From positions 1,245 through 65,244 of the forward strand of contig CACKRG010000005.1 of NCBI GenBank assembly GCA_902602515.1: DNA of 64,000 nt. The letters run 5' to 3'. Every line of letters starts with the position of its first letter. Positions within the stretch are counted from its first letter, which is position 1. A program made the translations under genes and the position numbers. Under the pieces are notes generated by a model. The model saw nothing but the letters and a program-made list of their open reading frames with translations. It was not told the origin of the DNA and made no database searches. Shown here piece by piece: positions 15 through 55,920 of the stretch. The DNA comes from an uncultured Alphaproteobacteria bacterium. Its GTDB lineage: Bacteria; Pseudomonadota; Alphaproteobacteria; HIMB59; GCA-002718135.

Positions 15-89
15 GGGTGTGTAGCTCAGCGGTAGAGCACTGCCTCGACACGGCAGGGGTCACAGGTTCAATCCCTGTCACACCCACCA
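15..89 (+). tRNA. tRNA-Val (anticodon GAC), 75 nt including encoded CCA
   Basis: Hand-folded cloverleaf. Acceptor GGGTGTG/CACACCC, D arm GCTC-AGCGGTA-GAGC, anticodon stem CTGCC/GGCAG with loop TCGACAC (GAC at 47-49), variable GGGTC, T arm ACAGG-TTCAATC-CCTGT, discriminator A plus CCA. Confidence 0.85.
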
Positions 90-142
90 ACAATCCTAAT
101 ATATATTCTTGAAAAATTATAATTTAATATATCTATATAATT

Positions 143-5270: not shown

Positions 5271-5891
5271 TTAGTTAATATTTTCAACAGGCCAATCTGT
5301 TTTAAAAGAAACATAGTTTACTTGAATACATCGTCTTTCTTTCTTTATTTCTTTAAGTTCAAGACCATGCCAGGTATCTTCACCAGAAGAAAAAAAGTAT
5401 CCACAATTATGAACATACTCTAATGTTTTTACTAATTTAAAATTTTTATCATATAAATCTGTACCTAAATCAGAAGACTCATTAAAAGGGTTAGCCCATA
5501 TCATCATAGTCATTAATTTTTCTGGAATATCTTTATGAGGTTTAAGCCAAAAACCTTTTTTATCTCCTATAACTTCTAATCTAACATACGATTTTGATAA
5601 ATCTTTATTAATAAGTTTTGAAATCTTATTTGCTAAGTATTTAGATTGTAATGAGCTTATCAGTTTTGTAAGGTGGGGAAAATTTTTATGATTTTCTTTA
5701 GTAATAAATAGTCTCAACTTACCATCTTTTCCTTGACCGGTATGATCAGCAGCTCTAGTTCCGTCATATGCTCTTTCACCATTCGGAATTGTAGAATAAG
5801 CTATTTCATTGAGGCAATTCTCATCCAAGCAATTATCAAATTGCCAATGATTGAATGGAAAGTCAGAATGAATTATATTATCAAGATTCAT
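5271..5891 (-). CDS. hypothetical protein, possible 2OG-Fe(II) oxygenase-like fold
   Basis: 206 aa. It has an HxD (LKPHKD) and a distal His (DTWHGLE) spaced as in a facial triad, followed by a basic RR. Assignment rests on motifs only. It overlaps the upstream gene by 11 nt. Confidence 0.45.
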   Translation of the reverse strand: MNLDNIIHSDFPFNHWQFDNCLDENCLNEIAYSTIPNGERAYDGTRAADHTGQGKDGKLRLFITKENHKNFPHLTKLISSLQSKYLANKISKLINKDLSKSYVRLEVIGDKKGFWLKPHKDIPEKLMTMMIWANPFNESSDLGTDLYDKNFKLVKTLEYVHNCGYFFSSGEDTWHGLELKEIKKERRCIQVNYVSFKTDWPVENIN

Positions 5892-6837
5892 TAATTCCTT
5901 CTAATATTCTTTCTTTTATAATTCCAGCAATTCTTTTACTTTCCTCTAATTTATTATAAGACCATTTTTCTAATATATTTGTTGACGGCAAATCTCTAGT
6001 TATATTTAAGCTTCTAAACTCATCATGGAATCTTTCGAACCTTATACTTTTTCTTTTAAAAGGAAGTTGATATATATAAACAGGCATACCAGATATTGAT
6101 GCTTCTGAAATCATAGATGTTGAGTCTGAAGTTATTATAAAAAAACTTGAGTTATATAATGAGTACTCATAAGGGTTTTCTCCATAACCTAACCACAAAT
6201 CAGCTGTTGAATTTAATTCACTTTTAATTAAGTTTTTAATCTCATCACTAGTTCTTCTTGATGTAATAATTAAAAATTTAAATGTATTATTTTTTTCTTT
6301 TAATTTTTTAATTTTGTTACATAATCCCATTGCTTCTTCAATTGTAAACAAATAGTGATTATTTTCTCCTCCAATAATGCATGAAACTAATTTTTGATTA
6401 TTGATATTAAATTTTTTTATAGAATTTTTATTTTTTTTAAAACTATGTAAAGCTCCTATTGAATTAATAATATTTTTACCCTTCAGATTGTCATGATTTG
6501 GCACAATTAAATAAGAAAAATTTTTTGAAGATATTTTGGGATTTTGAATGTGAATATTAATTATTTTATTATATTTTTTTTTAAGAAATCTAGACAAATA
6601 AATACTTTTTCTTCCACAACTAATTACGATATCTGGAATAGAATTTGGAATCTTATTTTTAAAAATCCAATTAAAAACTGGTAATAAACCTGGCTGTATT
6701 TTACTCCATGGAAATCTGATTTCTGTTTTGATTTCAGTAATATCTTCACTTAGTTCAAATGCTAAGCCTTTTGTTTGACTTATCATTCCTTGAGAACCAT
6801 CAGTTAATGTCCAGATTTTTAAATTATTAATATTCAA
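5881..6837 (-). CDS. ELM1/DUF1022-family protein (GT-B-like, function unknown)
   Basis: 318 aa. The N-terminus KIWTLTDGSQGMISQTKGLAFEL resembles the alphaproteobacterial ELM1/DUF1022 family from memory. It overlaps greA by 4 nt. Confidence 0.6.
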   Translation of the reverse strand: MNINNLKIWTLTDGSQGMISQTKGLAFELSEDITEIKTEIRFPWSKIQPGLLPVFNWIFKNKIPNSIPDIVISCGRKSIYLSRFLKKKYNKIINIHIQNPKISSKNFSYLIVPNHDNLKGKNIINSIGALHSFKKNKNSIKKFNINNQKLVSCIIGGENNHYLFTIEEAMGLCNKIKKLKEKNNTFKFLIITSRRTSDEIKNLIKSELNSTADLWLGYGENPYEYSLYNSSFFIITSDSTSMISEASISGMPVYIYQLPFKRKSIRFERFHDEFRSLNITRDLPSTNILEKWSYNKLEESKRIAGIIKERILEGINES

Positions 6838-7307
6838 ATGTATTTGACGGATATTACTGTGTAACTTTTTATACCCTTAGGACTATTTATTTCCACATTA
6901 TCATTTTTTGATTTACCAATCAAACCTCTTGCAAGTGGACTATTTATAGATAGTTTTTTATTTTCAATATCTGATTCGTATTCTCCCACAATTTGGTACT
7001 TTTGTTTTTTTCCTGTTTCATCGTCCTCTATTTCTACAGTAGCTCCAAATTTGATATCATTTCCAGTCATGTTTTTAATATCAATTACTTCAGCTCTACT
7101 GATATTACTTTCTAAATCAGATATTCTGCCCTCAATAAGACTTTGTTGTTCTTTTGCATATTGATATTCAGCATTTTCGGATAAATCTCCATGACCCCTA
7201 GCCTCAGCAATAGCTGCTATAATATTAGGTCTATCTTCTGAGGTTAATTTTTTCAATTCATCTTGTATTTTTGAATATCCTTCAGCAGTCATAGGTATTT
7301 TATTCAT
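6834..7307 (-). CDS. greA: transcription elongation factor GreA
   Basis: 157 aa with the GreA coiled-coil N-domain (AREHGDLSENAEY-type motif: ARGHGDLSENAEYQYAKEQQ) and C-terminal domain. Confidence 0.95.
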   Translation of the reverse strand: MNKIPMTAEGYSKIQDELKKLTSEDRPNIIAAIAEARGHGDLSENAEYQYAKEQQSLIEGRISDLESNISRAEVIDIKNMTGNDIKFGATVEIEDDETGKKQKYQIVGEYESDIENKKLSINSPLARGLIGKSKNDNVEINSPKGIKSYTVISVKYI

Positions 7308-7347
7308 AGACTCATGATGTTTTATTTATATTTTTAAGTCAACAAAA

Positions 7348-10300
7348 TTAATTTGGAGATTGCAGACTTTTAATTTTAAAACCATTTTTTTCCATATGTT
7401 CTATTGCGTCAACTGCAATTTTCGCACCAGCTATAGTAGTGTAATATGGTATATTATACATTAATGATGTTCTTCTTATGCTGTAACTATCTTTTATAGA
7501 GGATTGAGATTTAGTTGTATTTATTACGAGATCAATTTTATTATTTATTAATGAGTCAACTATATGAGGACTTCCTTCTTTAACCTTATTTATTTGTTGA
7601 GCTTTTATATTATTGTCATTGAGATATTTTGCTGTACCTTTTGTAGCAATCAAATTGAATTTCATATCTAATAACTTTCTTGCTGTAGAAATAATACCTT
7701 CCTTATTGCCATCATCAATTGAAATAAATACATTCCCCTTTGATGGTAATATATTTCCACATGCAATCTGACTTTTTATGTAAGACGACAAAAATGTTTC
7801 ATCTATACCCATTACCTCACCTGTGGATTTCATTTCAGGCCCCAATATTAAATCAACACCGTCTAATTTGTTAAAAGGAAAAACTGATTCTTTTACATTG
7901 AAGTTTGATAATTGTTTTATTTGATAATTTTTTAAAATTTCTTTTAGACTATCACCCACCATTATTTTTGCAGCAATTTTTGCAATAGGTATTCCCCTAG
8001 CTTTTGCTACAAAAGGAACTGTTCTACTAGCTCTGGGATTGACTTCTAATACATAAATATTATTATCTTTAATTGCTAACTGAGTATTCATAAGGCCTAT
8101 TACATTAATTTTATTTGCAATTTCGCTAACCCAATCTATTATTTTATTTTGGATCTCTTTATTAATTGAATATGGTGGTAAGGAGCAGGCACTGTCACCT
8201 GAGTGTATTCCCGCTTCTTCAATATGTTCCATAATACCAGCAATGAAAATTTCACCATTTTGATCTCTAATTAAATCTAAATCTATTTCTTTGGCATTCT
8301 CTAAATATTGATCAATTAAGATTGTGTTATTGGCTGATACATTCATTGCTTCTTTAGCAAATGATTTTAAGTTTTCTTTATCATAAGCAATTTGCATTGC
8401 TCTTCCCCCAAGAACATATGATGGTCTTATAAGTACAGGAAAGCCAATACTTTCAGCTATCTTAATTGTTTCATCAATAGATTTTGCAAAACCATTTTTA
8501 GGCTGATTTATATTTAGTTTATTTAAAACTTCACTAAACCTATCTCTATCCTCTGCAAGATCAATTGCATTAGTAGATGTCCCAATAATTTTTATACCTG
8601 CTGACTCTATTTCTTTTGCAATCTTTAATGGAGTTTGTCCACCAAATTGAACAAATACCCCAATTACTTTACCATTTGATGACTCTTTGTTATAAATTTC
8701 AATTACACTTTCAGCAGATAGTGGTTCAAAATATAATCTGTCAGCAGTGTCATAATCAGTAGAAACTGTCTCTGGATTGCAATTAATCATTATTGTTTCT
8801 ATCCCCTTTTCTTGAAGTGCATAAACAGCGTGCACACAGCAATAGTCAAATTCTATTCCTTGACCAATTCTATTTGGTCCGCCACCTAAAATAATAACTT
8901 TATTTTTATTAGTGGGATTGGACTCACAGTATTTTTTATTCTCAAATTCCCAATCATAAGTTGAATATAAATATGGTGTTTTTGATTTAAATTCTCCTGC
9001 GCAAGTATCTACTAATCTATAAACTGGATTTATATTATGTTTGTTTCTAAATTTTCTTACTTCTATTTCTTGTAATTTTAATAATGTGGAAATTTTTTTA
9101 TCAGAAAAACCATTTTTTTTTGCGAGTAAAACTAAGTTTTTTTCTAATTTACTATTTGATAAATACTTTTCTAATTCTATTAAGTAATTAATTTGATTAA
9201 TAAACCATTTATCATACTTGGTTGCATTATAAATTTCATCAACAGATTTACCTTTTCTTAGTGCTTCACCTACTAATAATAATCTTTGTGATGATTGCAA
9301 TTTTAGTTCTTCAATTATATCTGAATTGAATTTATCAACATTTTGAGGTGTATCTAGCCCATTAAGCCCATATTCAAGTGAGCTAAAACCTTTTTGTAAA
9401 GATTCGTTAAAAGATCTTCCAATACTCATAGCTTCACCAACAGATTTCATTGATGTTGTTAAATAGGAGTCTGAACCATCAAATTTTTCAAATGTAAACC
9501 TTGGAATTTTTGTAACAACATAATCAATTGTTGGCTCAAAACTTGCAGGGGTTGTTGTAGTTATATCATTTTGTAATTCATCTAAAGTATATCCGACAGC
9601 AAGTTTTGCAGCTATTTTAGCAATTGGAAAACCAGTTGCCTTAGATGCTAGAGCAGATGATCGACTTACTCTGGGATTCATCTCTATAACATTTATTTCC
9701 CCATTAATTGGATTGATTGCAAACTGAACGTTTGATCCACCAGTATCAACTCCAATTTTTCTTAGTACTTTAATACTGTCATTTCTTAATATTTGGTATT
9801 CTTTATCAGTTAGTGTTAATGATGGCGCAACTGTGATACTATCTCCGGTGTGAACACCCATTGGGTCTACATTTTCAATTGAACAAACAATTATGCAGTT
9901 ATCTTTATTGTCTCGAACAACTTCCATTTCAAATTCTTTCCAGCCAGATACAGATTTCTCAACTAATATTTGATTTGTTGGACTTGCATTTAAACCTCGT
10001 TCAGATAGTTCTCTAAATTCTTTATCAGTATATGCAACCCCACCACCTGTACCCCCTAAAGTAAAACTAGGCCTAATAACAAGAGGTAGTTTCAATTCAT
10101 ATTTTACTTCCTCAGCTTTGTTTATATTATCAACTACATAACTTTTAGGACAACTTAATCCTATTTCTTTCATAGCATCTTTAAATTTTTGTCTATCCTC
10201 GGCAAGTTCAATAGCTTTTGGATTGGCTCCAATCATCTTTACATTGTATTTATTTAAAATACCTTCATTAAATAATTCCATCGAGACATTTAGTGCAGTT

Positions 10301-22490: not shown

Positions 22491-23456
22491 ATGCAATATG
22501 ATAACATAAATGGTTTAGAAAAAAGTATATCAAAACTTATTATGGGTAATGATAACCAAACTGATTATGATGAAGCTGCTAAATTATGGGATCACTGGGT
22601 AGAGGTAGGAGGAAATGCATTTGATAATGCGCATATTTATGGTGGAGGCTCTATGGAGACCCTCTTGGGGAAATGGCATAAATCAAGAAATAATTTAAAC
22701 GATCTTGTAATAATTGCAAAAGGAGCACATACACCAAATTGCAATCCACAAAGTATCACAATACAACTTAGTGAGTCATTGGATAGACTAAAATGTGAAA
22801 GTGCTGATATTTATATAATGCACAGAGACAATACCGAGATCCCTGTTAGTGAGTTTATTGATGTTTTGAATGAAGAAAAACAAAAAGGAAGAATAAAGAT
22901 ATTTGGTGCTTCAAACTGGACTTTACAACGCTTTCAAGAAGCTAATGAGTGGGCAAAAAAAAATAATAAATTTGGTTTTAGTATTTTAAATAATAATTTA
23001 GCACTTTGTAAAATGATTAAACCTCTTTGGTCAGGATGTATTTCATCAAATAACAAAAAAATTTTAGACTACCTTGAAAGTACAAATACAGCACACCTAT
23101 CATGGTCGAGTCAAGGCAGGGGTTATTTTCTTCCTGATCAAATTACAAAAAAAATTGAAGATCAGATTACTAAGGATGAAACTTGGAGAAAACAAGGAGA
23201 GCACTCCAGTGGACCTCTTAGTTGCTTCGAAAGTGAAGATAATCGTGAAAGAAAAAAAAGAGCTAAATCACTCGCAATAAAAAAGAATACAACTGCACAG
23301 AATATTGCAGGAGCATGGCCAATAAATTTAAATTTTCCATCATTTGCCTTAATCGGCCCACGTAAAATTCAAGAAATAGATTCTAGTTTAAACAATTTGA
23401 AAATTAATTTAAGTAGTGAAGAAATTAATTGGTTAAATCTGATGGAGAAATTTTAA
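22491..23456 (+). CDS. aldo/keto reductase family oxidoreductase
   Basis: 321 aa with an AKR-like N-terminal block (GGNAFDNAHIYGGGSMETLLGKW) and IFGASNW. Confidence 0.75.
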   Translation: MQYDNINGLEKSISKLIMGNDNQTDYDEAAKLWDHWVEVGGNAFDNAHIYGGGSMETLLGKWHKSRNNLNDLVIIAKGAHTPNCNPQSITIQLSESLDRLKCESADIYIMHRDNTEIPVSEFIDVLNEEKQKGRIKIFGASNWTLQRFQEANEWAKKNNKFGFSILNNNLALCKMIKPLWSGCISSNNKKILDYLESTNTAHLSWSSQGRGYFLPDQITKKIEDQITKDETWRKQGEHSSGPLSCFESEDNRERKKRAKSLAIKKNTTAQNIAGAWPINLNFPSFALIGPRKIQEIDSSLNNLKINLSSEEINWLNLMEKF

Positions 23457-40310: not shown

Positions 40311-41626
40311 TGTATTTAATTTATGGAATTCAAAAATCGGGACTTTCAATAATAAATTATTGTCAAAATAATAAGATTAAATTTAAAATTTGGGATGACA
40401 ACCCAATTGTAAGAAAAAATATAAAAAAAAATTATAATAATCATTATTTTTTTAATAGAAAAAAAAATAATTTAAATGATTTTGAAAAAATATTTCTTAG
40501 TCCAGGAATATCTTTAAGAGATAAAAAATTTTTAAAAAAAAACGTATCTAAAAAAATAAATAGAGATTTAAATCTATATATTTCGAATTTAACTAATCAA
40601 ACTATTATTGCTGTAACTGGAACAAATGGAAAATCTACAACAACTAAATTAATAGGAGATATTTTAAAAAAAAATAAAATTAAAACTTTCGTTGGTGGTA
40701 ATATTGGAGATCCATTATGTAATGCTTTTCTTAAAAATAAAAAATCTAATTTTCACGTTATAGAGCTTAGTTCCTTTCAGTTAGAAACTGTAAAATCAAT
40801 TGAAACCAGAATTTCAATAATTACAAATTTATCTAGTGATCATTTAGATAGGTATAGCGGTATGAATGATTATGTTAATCAGAAAAAAAATATTATTTCT
40901 AAAAATGGAATCAATTTATTCTCTCTTGATGATATTTATTCAAGAAAGATTTATAATCAAAAAAAAATAAAAAATAAAATTAGTTTTTCCTTAGTTGATA
41001 AATCAGCTGATTTTTATGCAAATGAAAAATATATTTTAGATAATTACTTTAAAAAAGGGAGAAGACTATATATTAAAAAAATTTCAGACGATTTAGAAGG
41101 TCATTTTAATAATCAAAATATTTTAATAGCATATATATGTTGTAAAATATTAAAATTTTCAGAAACAAATTTTCTTAAAATTATAAAATCATTTAAAGGA
41201 CTTCCATTTAGGTCGTCTATAATTTTTAAAAATAATAAATTAAAAATAATAAACAATAGTAAATCAACTAATTTAAATTCTACAATAAACTCAATCAAAA
41301 ATTATAATAATATTTACTTAATATTGGGCGGTATTGCTAAGGAGAACAATTTTGAAATTCTTTCTGAATACAAAGAAAAACTTAATTGTGTTTATACATT
41401 TGGAAAGTCAGGATTATTTATTCAAAAAAAATTGAAAAGAGAGTTATTTGTTAAAAGATTACCAAATTTAAAAATATTAATAAAAAAAGTTTTTGAAGAT
41501 ATTAAAAAAAATAAAAATAAATCAACTATATTATTTGCACCAGCTTGCGCTTCATATGATCAATATAAAAATTTTGAAGAAAGAGGAATTCATTTTAATA
41601 ATTTAATTCGAAATTTTTTAAAGTAA
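40310..41626 (+). CDS. murD: UDP-N-acetylmuramoylalanine--D-glutamate ligase
   Basis: Start moved to the ATG sharing TAATG with the mraY stop (MYLIYGIQKSG...). The track start at 40223 would overlap mraY by 88 nt. P-loop VTGTNGKST. Confidence 0.88.
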   Translation: MYLIYGIQKSGLSIINYCQNNKIKFKIWDDNPIVRKNIKKNYNNHYFFNRKKNNLNDFEKIFLSPGISLRDKKFLKKNVSKKINRDLNLYISNLTNQTIIAVTGTNGKSTTTKLIGDILKKNKIKTFVGGNIGDPLCNAFLKNKKSNFHVIELSSFQLETVKSIETRISIITNLSSDHLDRYSGMNDYVNQKKNIISKNGINLFSLDDIYSRKIYNQKKIKNKISFSLVDKSADFYANEKYILDNYFKKGRRLYIKKISDDLEGHFNNQNILIAYICCKILKFSETNFLKIIKSFKGLPFRSSIIFKNNKLKIINNSKSTNLNSTINSIKNYNNIYLILGGIAKENNFEILSEYKEKLNCVYTFGKSGLFIQKKLKRELFVKRLPNLKILIKKVFEDIKKNKNKSTILFAPACASYDQYKNFEERGIHFNNLIRNFLK

Positions 41627-54150: not shown

Positions 54151-54516
54151 TTATTTTTTTAGCTTTTCCCACTCAGCCATACCACCGGAAATATTTTTAA
54201 CGTTTTTAATGCCCATGTCTTGCATTGTTTTAGTTGCTAAAGTACCTTGTCCGCCAACACCACAAAATACAACATATTCTTTTTCTGGGTTATTTTTAAA
54301 AAATTCATTTTCTAAGGGACTTCCGTCAGCTAAATAAAACTCAAGAAACGCTTTATCTAAGTGAATTGCGTTTCCAATTGTACCTTTTTCAAAACTATCT
54401 TTATCTCTAACATCAATAAATTGAACATTTGGGTCATTTAACTTTTCTTTAGCTTCTGAAGCAGTTATATTTATAATTTCATCTTTTACACTCATTAAAT
54501 CTTCAAATTTTTTCAT
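54151..54516 (-). CDS. rhodanese-like domain protein
   Basis: 121 aa with a single rhodanese-fold pattern (FIDVRD...F..G.I..A, active-site-loop Cys in FCGVGGQG, ...GG...W). AAAGGAG Shine-Dalgarno upstream. Confidence 0.75.
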   Translation of the reverse strand: MKKFEDLMSVKDEIINITASEAKEKLNDPNVQFIDVRDKDSFEKGTIGNAIHLDKAFLEFYLADGSPLENEFFKNNPEKEYVVFCGVGGQGTLATKTMQDMGIKNVKNISGGMAEWEKLKK

Positions 54517-54538: not shown

Positions 54539-54552
54539 TGGGGCGTTCTGTT
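54539..54552. repeat. distal copy of the ssrA 3'-end 14-mer (attL/attR-like)
   Basis: TGGGGCGTTCTGTT is identical to 55076-55089. It lies 22 nt upstream of the rhodanese start codon. Confidence 0.8.
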
Positions 54553-54598
54553 TCCTCAACTAACTTGCCCAAGTCGCAGTATACAATGATTTTCTGCG

Positions 54599-54666
54599 TC
54601 TGTGTGCTTTTTCTGTGTGCTCTGATTTTGTGTTTTTGATGAATTTGCGACTTTTGTCTGTGTGCT
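54599..54666 (+). repeat. three direct copies of (T)CTGTGTGCT
   Basis: Copies at 54600-54608, 54613-54621 and 54658-54666. An 8-bp inverted repeat, AAGTCGCA (54571-78) and TGCGACTT (54646-53), brackets the first two. Confidence 0.85.
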
Positions 54667-54724
54667 ATCTTAAAATAGATGTAATTATTATGTAAAATAT
54701 TAATTAAAAATAGGGAGAATTAAA

Positions 54725-54940
54725 ATGACTATAGACCAATATACAAAGTTTTTACTTACGTTGATTGCAGTTGGCATACTTGGACTCAACTTTCATCTTT
54801 ATAAGGGTAGTATCATTAAGAATGCGTTTGCAGCAAACGAACAAATACATAAAATTGCGATTTGCAACGAGCAAGGAACAAAATGTGCAGGTGTTTCTGA
54901 AAATGGAAATCATTTTAGAATAATAGTAACACCACGATGA
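54725..54940 (+). CDS. hypothetical small membrane-anchored protein (71 aa)
   Basis: A strong AGGGAG Shine-Dalgarno lies 8 nt upstream of the ATG. There is one N-terminal TM helix (FLLTLIAVGILGLNF) and a ~40-aa tail with two Cys (CNEQGTKC). I recognise no family. Confidence 0.5.
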   Translation: MTIDQYTKFLLTLIAVGILGLNFHLYKGSIIKNAFAANEQIHKIAICNEQGTKCAGVSENGNHFRIIVTPR

Positions 54941-54996
54941 TTAATTAATTTCAATACGATTCATCACATAGAAAATGGGAACCTTTTGATTTTTAT

Positions 54997-55028
54997 CTGT
55001 GTGCTTTCTGTGTGCTCAACTGTGTGCT
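54997..55028 (+). repeat. three further direct copies of CTGTGTGCT
   Basis: Copies at 54997-55005, 55008-55016 and 55020-55028, spaced 11-12 nt apart and in the same orientation as the first trio. Confidence 0.85.
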
Positions 55029-55075
55029 CTTTAATTTTACAAAAACAAGAGGAAGCAAAGGGAATTTATAAAAGT

Positions 55076-55324
55076 GGGGCGTTCTGTTGCTCGGTGCCCC
55101 TGACCGCGCTCACCTAGAATCTAGGCAGCAAGTGCTAATCTATTATCGTTAGCGTTTATAAAATAGCCCGATAACGGTGGTACAATGCCGGATAAAGTCT
55201 TTGTCTTTCAATTACCGTCGATCCTATTTCGTCCCCATATTTATGGTGGAGACGCCGGGTACCGCCCCCGGGTCCGAATAACTTATTTCACAAAGCATTT
55301 ATTATCTTAGTTGATAAATCAACA
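55076..55324 (-). ncRNA. ssrA: two-piece (circularly permuted) tmRNA: acceptor piece about 55245-55324, 7-nt spacer, coding piece 55076-55237
   Basis: On the minus strand the order is ...UAUUCGGAC, the T arm [CCGGG]GGCGGUA[CCCGG], then CGUCUCC-ACCA, then UAAAUAU, then GGGGACGAAAUAGGAUCGACGG.... Acceptor pairing GGGGACG/CGUCUCC includes a G3-U wobble, the AlaRS identity element. The tag ORF GCT AAC GAT AAT AGA TTA GCA CTT GCT GCC TAG encodes ANDNRLALAA*. The CCA end precedes the GGGG 5' end, which is the alphaproteobacterial permuted arrangement. The 5' end of the acceptor piece is uncertain. Confidence 0.85.
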
Positions 55325-55330
55325 TAATAA

Positions 55331-55336
55331 TTATAC
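55331..55336 (-). promoter_or_regulatory. possible -10 hexamer (TATAAT on the minus strand) for ssrA
   Basis: The minus strand reads GGGGTATAATTATT about 80-90 nt upstream of the CCA end. No clear -35 is visible. Confidence 0.3.
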
Positions 55337-55431
55337 CCCAAACAAGCGTTCCATAAAAGATTTGTCTTAAATTATATTATTTAATTAAAATAATTGTTAC
55401 AATTTAATTAAAAAAAATAGATAAAAAACTT

Positions 55432-55920
55432 ATGATTAAAGCAATAATAGCAGTAGATGATAAAGGCGGTATTAGTAAAGGACAAAGTATGCCATGGCCA
55501 AAAAATTCTATAGATTTAAAATGGTTTAAGAAAAATACGTTAAATAATATAGTAATTATGGGTAGAAAAACATGGGATGATCCATTTATGCCTACTCCTT
55601 TGAAATCAAGAATAAATATTTTAATAACTAATAAAGATCCCCAAATGTATCAAGGTGCTGACTATTATCTCTCTGGAAGTATCAAAGATAAAATTATAAA
55701 TATTCAAAAGAAATATAATAATAAGGATATATTTATAATAGGTGGTTCGGAAATAATAAATCTTACATTTGAATTAATTCAAGAATTTTATCTAACAAGA
55801 ATCTACGGTAATTATAATTGTGAAAAATTTATAAATATTTCTATGGTAGAAAATAGTATGACTATGATTAAAAAGATTGATGGTGACACATCATGTCATT
55901 TTGAAATTTGGAGAAAATGA
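55432..55920 (+). CDS. folA: dihydrofolate reductase
   Basis: 162 aa with IIAVDDKGGISKGQSMPW....D.KWFK..T and VIMGRKTW motifs, plus IIGG near the C-terminal third. It overlaps thyA by 13 nt. Confidence 0.85.
   Translation: MIKAIIAVDDKGGISKGQSMPWPKNSIDLKWFKKNTLNNIVIMGRKTWDDPFMPTPLKSRINILITNKDPQMYQGADYYLSGSIKDKIINIQKKYNNKDIFIIGGSEIINLTFELIQEFYLTRIYGNYNCEKFINISMVENSMTMIKKIDGDTSCHFEIWRK

Follow-up and report, generated by a model that had tools for sequence, protein, structure and literature searches.

Islands at the 3' end of ssrA, the gene of the transfer-messenger RNA (tmRNA), have been described in Dehalococcoides, where up to a dozen direct repeats were found downstream of the gene and the islands without an integrase were proposed to be cis-mobilisable elements (CIMEs) (PMC3146451). 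The tmRNA gene is also among the targets of the tycheposons of Prochlorococcus (bioRxiv 10.1101/2020.12.28.424599). Additive islands with partial repeats of tRNA 3' ends are reported for Ca. Actinomarinales (PMC7771536) and for fGI-2 of Ca. Methylopumilus (PMC10872708), and four tRNA-linked SAR11 islands as well as one SAR11 gMED island linked to the tmRNA gene are described (PMC11796062). The known temperate pelagiphages integrate at tRNA genes, and none of the sites reported for them is ssrA (PMC8477408; bioRxiv 410191). The present analysis deals with a segment of about 0.55 kb located between ssrA and a rhodanese gene on contig CACKRG010000005.1 of an uncultured alphaproteobacterium (assembly GCA_902602515.1), from which a stretch of 64,000 nt, hereafter called the window, was examined. 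The segment is a discrete and precisely bounded insert. It truly belongs to an array of cassettes that is very common at ssrA across SAR11, and is an ordinary case there, no isolated curiosity. It is probably an integrated mini cassette of this tandem array (an additive island), mobilised in trans by the integrase of a related element.

The ssrA-end repeat and the segment it bounds

The 14-mer TGGGGCGTTCTGTT, hereafter the core, is present in exact form at 54539..54552 and 55075..55088 (both on the + strand) and at no other place in the window; even with up to two mismatches allowed, the count in the 64 kb remained two, against a chance expectation of 0.07. The right copy is formed by the last 14 nt of the two-piece (permuted) tmRNA gene. 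The preliminary description of this DNA had reported the exact repeat and the correct place of the left copy, and had set the right copy off by one position (55076-55089). As it had also reported, 22 nt separate the left copy from the rhodanese gene, upstream of whose start codon it is located; this gene (54151..54516, minus strand; Pfam PF00581) forms the chromosomal flank on the far side. The Rfam model RF01849 (alpha tmRNA) matched positions 55362..55073 of the minus strand with 227 bits (E 1.4e-64), and the model was aligned over its full length (positions 1-355 of 355), which shows that the RNA gene is intact beside the insert. ARAGORN agreed with Rfam and gave the tag ANDNRLALAA. On the basis of Rfam, ARAGORN and synteny, the 3' end of ssrA (55073..55362, minus strand) was assigned as the integration target, i.e. 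the chromosomal attachment site (attB). A second repeat, the 9-mer CTGTGTGCT, is present in six exact copies, all on the + strand and all enclosed by the two cores (starts at 54600, 54613, 54658, 54997, 55008 and 55020), and no further exact copy was found in the window.

Recurrence of the ssrA end by chance had been judged unlikely, and this was borne out by a shuffling test in which the last 30 nt of ssrA were kept fixed and the downstream 1 kb was dinucleotide-shuffled. None of 2000 shuffles gave a word of at least 14 nt in common with the ssrA tail, the longest being 11 nt.

For comparison, 49 SAR11 single-cell genome loci, one per species, were fetched with folA as anchor. This gene (coding for DHFR; 55432..55920 on the + strand of the window) represents the conserved flank on the ssrA side, and its synteny with ssrA was kept in all 49 loci. 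The distance between the 3' end of ssrA and the rhodanese gene varied widely, with 22 nt as the shortest value and over 6 kb at the other extreme. Empty sites, which the preliminary description had proposed to look for among relatives, were found in two loci (L067 and L075), where the rhodanese leader passes through a single core straight into ssrA. The window displays the order leader, core, left arm, right arm, core and ssrA, with the cargo between the two arms, and it aligns to L067 and L075 with base precision as a triad of attB and two junctions. By this alignment the ssrA-proximal core (55075..55088, +) is the junction between the right arm and the body of ssrA, and the distal core (54539..54552, +) is a displaced duplicate of the ssrA 3' end at the junction between the rhodanese leader and the left arm.

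Contigs with an identical rhodanese protein, an identical 31-nt leader and the core were found to carry other occupants at this junction. In L401, a 2.4-kb acyltransferase cassette stands between the core at the rhodanese gene and the core at ssrA, and in L402-L405 another cargo follows the same arm, with leader and core identical to those of the window. The window cassette itself was recovered from a Logan contig (L046) with 98.5% identity over 528 nt, every difference being located in the approximately 20 nt of the left-arm spacer that adjoin the core. Its neighbour on that contig is a core-bounded module with a PD-(D/E)XK nuclease and a T5orf172 protein, and there is no rhodanese gene there. 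The rhodanese gene was undetected in 18 of the 49 loci, some of them on contigs cut short, and in L066 it is inverted with an inverted core copy beside it.

Further variable genes were observed in the interval between the rhodanese gene and sspB, and in L072 and L093 also beyond sspB. The rhodanese-sspB region also contains sequences that resemble arms but have no recognisable core (loci L047-L095), and because of them the cassette array probably extends to sspB in a decayed form.

The left arm of the window cassette starts with a 47-nt spacer (54553..54599, +), delimited by comparison with related cassettes (type C, see below). The approximately 20 nt of this spacer next to the core are hypervariable and are followed by the conserved motif GTCGCAGTATACAA. 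The left-arm repeats (54600..54666, +), candidate arm-type integrase sites, consist of a tandem pair of CTGTGTGCT at 54600 and 54613 and a single copy at 54658, with the conserved spacer CTGATTTTGTGTTTTTGATGAATTTGCGACTTTTGT between pair and single copy. In the right arm, three exact copies of CTGTGTGCT with a period of 11-12 nt (54997..55028, +) represent the corresponding candidate sites, and they are separated from the ssrA-proximal core by a 46-nt spacer (55029..55074, +) that contains TTTACAAAAACAAGAGGAAGCAAAGGGAATTT and is conserved among type-C cassettes.

The only sizeable open reading frame (ORF) between the cores is the cargo ORF of 71 amino acids (ORF71; 54725..54940, +), which was taken from the ORF list and matched no Pfam family. 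The bracketed DNA is thus correctly described as holding a single 71-aa ORF and no recombinase. At the N-terminus of ORF71 there is a hydrophobic helix, a stretch that is invariant in the family, as are two cysteines. The 21 homologues of ORF71 show 51-100% identity, the best after the self-match reaching 78%, and 20 columns, including C47 and C54, are invariant across 13 sequences of the family. On contig L030 (85-960), a homologue preceded by a 121-aa ORF is located in a cassette bounded by an intact tRNA-Gly gene and a 51-nt partial repeat; therefore, this cargo family also travels in cassettes at a different RNA gene. A pair of GGATTCA motifs, 11 nt apart, was noticed after the tRNA-Gly gene of the same contig. 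Inside the segment, Rfam gave no family match even at E <= 1, and no phage genes were found. The hallmark genes of tycheposons and VEIMEs (tyrosine or large serine recombinase, primase/helicase, regulator) are absent from the window cassette. A weak promoter-like site is present after the third 9-mer.

The cassette array and its arm architecture

Core copies with at most one mismatch were counted in 50 loci, i.e. the 49 single-cell genome loci and the window. A single locus, on a cut contig, had none. One copy was found in 17 loci, two in 16, three in 11, four in two, five in two and six in one, so that 32 of the 50 loci carry at least two cores. An element of this kind had been expected to be unusual in such a streamlined genome; at this locus it is the rule instead. 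The 17 loci with a single core still carry variable genes. When only exact copies of the 12-mer GGGGCGTTCTGT within the core were considered, 105 were found in 51 sources, all in the orientation of ssrA except for the one inverted copy in L066. The cores delimit 57 cassettes with a length of 120-3436 nt (median 801 nt).

Three families of cassettes, types A, B and C, were defined by their end sequences. Type A is the commonest (26 of 49 loci); it is about 800 nt long (for example L053 8853-9664) and its cargo, a protein of 173-182 amino acids without significant Pfam match, is encoded on the opposite strand. The type-A cassette is usually the one nearest to ssrA, and its cargo gene was noted to have the position and orientation of the integrase in type-B elements. 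Type B is characterized by a 23-nt identity with ssrA. Type C, to which the window cassette belongs, carries unrelated cargo: ORF71 in the window, a 138-aa ORF in L069, a 117-aa ORF in L094, three ORFs, nucleases among them, in L079, and none in L092, where the unit measures 166 nt. Such cargo-less units have a length of 134-166 nt. A Pfam analysis of 50 representative ORFs of the arrays identified cargo functions only, among them transferases of methyl, glycosyl, sulfo and acyl groups, a peptidase, a permease, nucleases and GNAT proteins, and no recombinase was detected among these 50 ORFs. The cargo of the arrays, which also includes carbamoyltransferases and a DNA methylase with a restriction-enzyme-like partner, is of the kind usual in flexible genomes.

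Type-A cassettes of genomes that differ at the species level show a mean identity of 96.2%; a value of 98% or more, up to 100%, was reached by 32 of 153 pairs. The adjacent folA-thyA flank has a mean identity of 92.0% and never reaches 98%, and the two values are not correlated (r = 0.06). Type-A cassettes that are 100% identical were found in genomes where the folA-thyA flank is only about 89% identical. Since type-A identity is uncoupled from flank identity, these cassettes move horizontally.

The arms of types A and C follow a common plan. On the distal side, the core is followed by a spacer of about 47 nt, two repeats of 8-11 nt located 11-13 nt apart, a conserved spacer of about 35 nt and a third copy of the repeat. 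On the ssrA side, three repeats with a period of 11-12 nt are found, the last one ending about 46-50 nt before the core. The offsets of the left-arm repeats from the core (+46..50, +59..61 and +104..106) are the same in types A and C despite differing repeats. In type B, one arm has its repeats at +28, +140 and +151, and the opposite arm at -68 and -57. The sequence of the repeat varies by cassette (CTGTGTGCT, GTGTGTGCA, GTGCGTGCT, CTTCGTAG, AAACGGCA, ATTACGCA, GGACGCGT and others), and the positions remain constant. Among the 53 cassettes of at least 400 nt, 50 have an 8-mer common to both arms (one mismatch allowed) at fixed offsets. The trios of 9-mers had been described as placed where arm sites would be expected, and this view is strengthened by cassettes with other repeats, in which the core distances are the same and the repeats of both arms match within the cassette. 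From their sequence and spacing, the conserved short repeats are most likely arm-type binding sites of a lambda-like tyrosine integrase.

Exact matching of the repeats was found within the cassette in 36 of 53 cases and across a core in 3 of 20, all three being tandems of the same type. This matching within cassettes indicates that the segment from core to core is the inherited unit and that its two arms derive from one contiguous site. The variable positions of the core allowed the exchange point to be located. Position 14 is A in all 26 cores that precede a type-A arm and T in all 48 cores that precede ssrA; it travels with the right-hand DNA, and position 1 travels with the left-hand DNA. 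As positions 1 and 14 segregate according to the flank, strand exchange takes place inside the 12-mer GGGGCGTTCTGT.

Integrase-bearing relatives and searches for a helper

In L076, a tyrosine integrase (PF00589, E 1.9e-27) was identified at the ssrA-proximal end of a core-bounded type-B cassette (5417-8866). The gene is split by a -1 frameshift in a run of A; when repaired, it codes for 338 amino acids. It was detected by phmmer with an unrelated phage integrase as query, its two small ORFs having escaped the earlier Pfam run. This frameshifted gene makes L076 the only integrase-bearing array among the 49 loci; in the window and in the other 48 loci no integrase flanks the array. In marine data, 515 or more members of the family of the L076 integrase are present, and some are annotated as Pelagibacteraceae.

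Intact members of this family were found at the same core. Integrase P0022, 94% identical to that of L076, is located directly after ssrA in contig L416, where the 3' region of ssrA matches that of the window. The order there is core, 57 nt, two copies of GTGCCGTTT, the integrase gene, an excisionase-like gene (HTH_17), a primosomal-like gene and a second integrase. The latter, a different tyrosine integrase at the far end of this element (L416 3582-7246) and read towards ssrA, was considered as a candidate for type-A or type-C arms and dropped, as no core or arm separates the two gene blocks. Integrase P0024 (82% identical) is encoded on a circular element of 5,811 nt represented by metagenome contigs from ENA/TARA (L427-L432). 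Circularity was deduced from a terminal overlap of 127 nt in L427 and from five contigs of other samples with 99.4-99.8% identity, three of which are full-length circular permutations and two partial. Besides P0024 and several small ORFs, the circle encodes a 719-aa DUF5906 protein, which we take to be primase/helicase-associated. The element attachment site (attP) of the circle consists of two repeats, 57 nt, a core identical to ssrA over 23 nt, 28 nt, one repeat, about 100 nt and two repeats. Its two halves align to both ends of type-B cassettes of the single-cell genomes that have no integrase (for example L094, 5499-5670 and 6501-6588). A further integrase, P0031 (73% identical), displays the same layout with the repeat GTGTGCGATCC.

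The three integrase variants are thus accompanied by three different repeat sequences at the same positions (GTGCCGTTT, TTACGCGTCA and GTGTGCGATCC), and such co-variation is the behaviour expected of arm-type sites, which would be bound by the N-terminal domain of the integrase. In L047, a cassette without integrase has AAACGGCA repeats like those of the integrase-bearing L076 and L416, and its left arm is 81% identical. In another SAR11 lineage (L419-L426), an intact integrase of the same family (P0057, 59% identical) is located about 100 nt after ssrA in the order thyA-folA-ssrA-int. In the collection, 154 indexed blocks contain a protein identical to P0057, and the same context was seen in all eight of those shown. 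No second core was found within at least 6 kb after this integrase, which may be a resident or domesticated enzyme. A contig listed alongside the P0057 set, L433, carries integrase P0039.

The 9-mer of the window was also found near integrases of other elements. In two unrelated IMG/VR contigs, L015 (3945-5210) and L021 (3234-4416), a tyrosine integrase gene is accompanied within about 200 nt by pairs of CTGTGTGCT with a distance of 11-12 nt, and in L015 these pairs flank a core made of a tRNA 3' fragment, as in a textbook attP. In L007 (530-2411), the integrase is about 750 nt away from its CTGTGTGCT pair. Judged from these arrangements, CTGTGTGCT may serve as an arm-type site elsewhere. Most CTGTGTGCT pairs in IMG/VR were discarded as candidate phage attP sites, being microsatellites or coding repeats. 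Pairs of CTTCGTAG proved too unspecific as a search handle; the one in L213 is the repeated N-terminus of a coding sequence. A scan of metagenomes for the CTGTGTGCT trio gave at least 120 matches, those listed being mostly unrelated repeats. At least six relevant contigs were among the matches listed, with the trio next to the core or ssrA (L285, L313, L317, L339, L354 and L372), and none of these carried an integrase. In L313 (401-1085), a putative aminotransferase-like ORF runs into a core, after which a cargo-less type-C unit follows.

A pelagiphage carrying the core next to such repeats, which the preliminary description had suggested to look for, was not found in IMG/VR or INPHARED. Scans of IMG/VR were negative for the 22-mer end of ssrA, for the core plus arm of type A and for the right arm of type C. 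The 65 IMG/VR matches to the 14-mer plus NC were chance occurrences, ssrA genes of other alphaproteobacteria or low-GC myophage-like contigs probably encoding a two-piece tmRNA of their own (cf. PMC9004378), and att-like arms were present in none of them; a phage donor was rejected on this basis. In eight viral contigs of low GC (0.31-0.37; L124, L129, L132, L136, L141, L143, L152 and L159), a sequence resembling a tmRNA 3' end and terminating in the 14-mer was observed, with neither att-like arms nor an integrase nearby. They probably represent ssrA genes encoded by pelagimyophages or Melnitz-like phages. A blastn search of INPHARED returned noise only, and no IMG/VR sequence exceeded about 32% identity to the L076-type integrase family. 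A prophage or pelagiphage remnant was also rejected, given that the insert has no phage genes and no phage of IMG/VR or INPHARED has the core plus arms. Mobilisation of the XerCD/dif type (IMEX, pdif module) was set aside as well, since a dedicated integrase family exists and the core, compared by eye without a dif consensus search, is unlike the dif site.

Explanations and comparison with known systems

The following course of events is proposed for the window. A circular DNA with an attP-like site and the 71-aa cargo gene would have recombined at the core that ends ssrA. Its attP would have had the order three 9-mers, 46 nt, the GGGGCGTTCTGT core, 47 nt, two 9-mers, 36 nt and one 9-mer. Integration would have regenerated the tmRNA 3' end, left a duplicate core by the rhodanese gene and split the attP into the arms at the two cassette ends. 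With no recombinase in the cassette and with 9-mers about one helical turn apart, a lambda-like tyrosine integrase would have been supplied in trans. The helper would be a related autonomous element at the same core, circular or integrated, with an integrase and a primase/helicase or an excisionase-like gene. We infer that this integrase recognises the CTGTGTGCT arms and that the window cassette can still be excised. For the sister type-B cassettes, the integrase family and the circular attP are established. The view that the segment is an attP-plus-cargo unit mobilised in trans in the manner of a CIME had already been put forward in the preliminary description, and it gains support from the integrase-bearing relatives that use the same core (L076, L416 and the 5.8-kb circle). 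Of the checks suggested there, those that could be made turned out in its favour with one exception.

Several observations weigh against this proposal. No integrase with CTGTGTGCT or with type-A or type-C arms was found in the 49 single-cell loci, the 120 listed metagenome matches, IMG/VR or the window, and a hidden Markov model of the integrase family gave no match over the 64 kb. Integrase-bearing sites occupied at the same core do exist, as had been anticipated, and none of them has CTGTGTGCT arms: these elements all have type-B arms, with a layout unlike that of types A and C and with the longer, 23-nt identity to ssrA. Neither a circular junction nor an excised form of the window cassette was seen. 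In L285 (190-1305), a hybrid cassette combines a CTTCGTGCA left arm with a CTGTGTGCT right arm; together with L313 it points to rearrangements that bypass the core, and arms can be reshuffled by other recombination. Homologous recombination via conserved flanks could also give horizontal transfer without any site-specific activity. These points lead to the alternative that the segment is a fixed remnant of a larger integrase-bearing element, which underwent internal deletion, can no longer be excised and spreads between strains solely where the island, or a part of it, is replaced by homologous recombination in the conserved flanks (ssrA/folA and sspB). The cognate integrase that was not found for type-A and type-C arms, the frameshift in the sole integrase of the 49 single-cell arrays and the hybrid L285 as a case of recombination outside the core are all in line with it. 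So are the many decayed cores and arms, including arm-like matches without a core and the 17 single-core loci with variable genes, and the literature on SAR11 islands, in which no canonical mobile elements are reported (PMC11796062). A fixed remnant is nevertheless regarded as unlikely. Number and spacing of the repeats are kept in dozens of cassettes with unrelated cargo or none, contrary to the expectation for neutral remnants, the junctions are base-precise in near-identical backgrounds, and the same cassette occurs at different array positions. Moreover, 100%-identical type-A cassettes stand beside flanks of 89% identity, and flank replacement would carry the flank along. The window cassette as a mobilisable, CIME-like unit is therefore favoured over a fixed remnant.

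A capture platform similar to an integron, in which the ssrA 3' end would act as an attI-like site served by a resident integrase and the cassettes with attC-like arms would be the mobile units, would explain why most cassettes are without recombinase and have a single gene, why their sites have a uniform orientation and why some are empty; the intact integrase of the same family right after ssrA in another SAR11 lineage would also fit. Still, no second core follows that integrase within at least 6 kb, and the lineage of the window has no resident integrase by ssrA. The repeats differ by cassette and co-vary with the integrases, which argues for many element-borne enzymes and not for one resident enzyme, and the sites are lambda-type arms and not attC hairpins: the array boundaries are direct repeats with arm repeats and not imperfect palindromes, as judged without a formal attC model search. 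Such a platform is therefore considered very improbable. Least credible of all, to the point of being practically dismissed, is the explanation that the 14-mer and the 9-mers are chance repeats or promoter, operator or terminator elements of the rhodanese gene or ORF71. What speaks for it is the weak promoter-like site after the third 9-mer and the behaviour of short repeats in this DNA. When the AT-rich region of 1.4 kb was shuffled, an exact 14-nt direct repeat of any sequence arose in 2% of cases, and two further 16-nt words of ssrA, CATATTTATGGTGGAG and CTTAGTTGATAAATCA, recur exactly in the window at 22632-22647 and 40990-41005, within long protein-coding ORFs. These two recurrences look like chance, yet two exceed the prediction of a simple estimate. 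For both reasons the bare repeat alone is suggestive and no proof; it is made decisive by its position and the comparative data. The latter already contradict a chance or regulatory origin, since the segment is absent with base precision in L067 and L075 and a locus can have as many as six cores, every one at the boundary of a cassette. The ssrA tail itself was repeated in no shuffle, the arms are indifferent to the orientation of the cargo (type-A cargo being on the opposite strand), and no Rfam family is found inside the segment.

Beyond the preferred reading of a cassette mobilised in trans, a more general scheme is offered tentatively, with somewhat less than even confidence. SAR11 would run a tmRNA-centred cassette exchange, in which a large family of diversified integrases, each with its own arm repeats of 8-11 nt and carried on circles of about 5.8 kb with a primase/helicase gene or, in some lineages, resident at ssrA, would shuttle attP-plus-gene units, and even cargo-less attP units of only 134 nt, via the 12-nt core; the window cassette would be active and served by an integrase specific for CTGTGTGCT. 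A AGCACACAG or CTGTGTGCT pair or trio beside a PF00589 gene and GGGGCGTTCTGT would point to this cognate integrase. Such an exchange system, if true, would provide integron-like sampling of accessory genes in a genome otherwise without mobile elements. SAR11 is the most abundant bacterial clade of the surface ocean, and the usual view of its genomes, to our knowledge, is that they lack mobile elements. For the gain and loss of flexible genes in this clade, the locus supplies a concrete, testable mechanism with a 12-nt exchange site at the ssrA end. It also represents a natural set of specificity pairs of integrases and arm sites, by which gene flow in SAR11 islands becomes directly testable.

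With respect to known systems, the site has much in common with the attP of phage lambda, which spans about 240 bp and has five arm-type sites (P1 and P2 to one side of the core, P'1-P'3 to the opposite side), to which Int binds through its N-terminal domain. In both, a short core stands between two stretches of about 100 nt that together contain five or six short direct repeats, and repeat specificity varies with the integrase; the SAR11 cassettes have a contiguous trio on one arm and a pair with one extra copy on the other. Unlike the attP of lambda, the SAR11 site travels without its integrase, and its arm binding is a prediction from sequence. The likeness to integrons lies in the single-gene cassettes without recombinase at one chromosomal site and in the empty cassettes, and the difference in the boundaries, which are direct repeats of an RNA-gene end, and in the lineage of the window, where no IntI-type integrase stands beside the array.

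Tycheposons and VEIMEs, small integrative elements of marine bacteria from oligotrophic waters, combine a tyrosine integrase with primase/helicase and AlpA- or excisionase-like genes, target tRNA and tmRNA genes, occur in tandem with partial tRNA copies and leave remnants in islands (bioRxiv 10.1101/2020.12.28.424599; PMC9618062). The 5.8-kb circle and L416 fit this picture, in contrast to the window cassette, which is without any hallmark gene. Hence L416 and the circle of L427-L432, and not the window cassette, may be members of the tycheposons or VEIMEs, and the elements with integrase and primase would resemble the Pelagibacter-associated VEIME satellites (PMC9618062). The additive islands of other plankton bacteria are like the SAR11 ssrA cassettes in being marked by repeats at an RNA gene, in having a cargo that varies between close strains and in usually having no integrase in sight. 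In their accessible parts, the papers on these islands report no tmRNA-end repeats inside a SAR11 island, no arm architecture, no cargo-less units and no cognate integrase or circle. Within the literature searched, the following seem to be new: the regular split attP of the cassettes at the SAR11 ssrA gene, the units without cargo, the location of the exchange inside a 12-mer, and the link to a specific integrase family with its circle and co-varying arms.

The Dehalococcoides islands share the ssrA target, and their recombinase is a CcrB-like serine enzyme, in contrast to the SAR11 family, which is a tyrosine recombinase with arm repeats (PMC3146451). Compared with CIMEs, the SAR11 units are small (0.12-3.4 kb, often with one gene or none), they insert into a two-piece tmRNA gene where its coding piece ends, and integrase-bearing copies are very rare in their arrays. 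The comparison with CIMEs made in the preliminary description is nonetheless apt: like the CIMEs of Streptococcus thermophilus, which accrete with integrative and conjugative elements (ICEs), the SAR11 cassettes are bounded by an attachment site at either end (attL/attR), have no recombinase and are found in tandem with integrase-bearing relatives at the same site, by which they would be mobilised.

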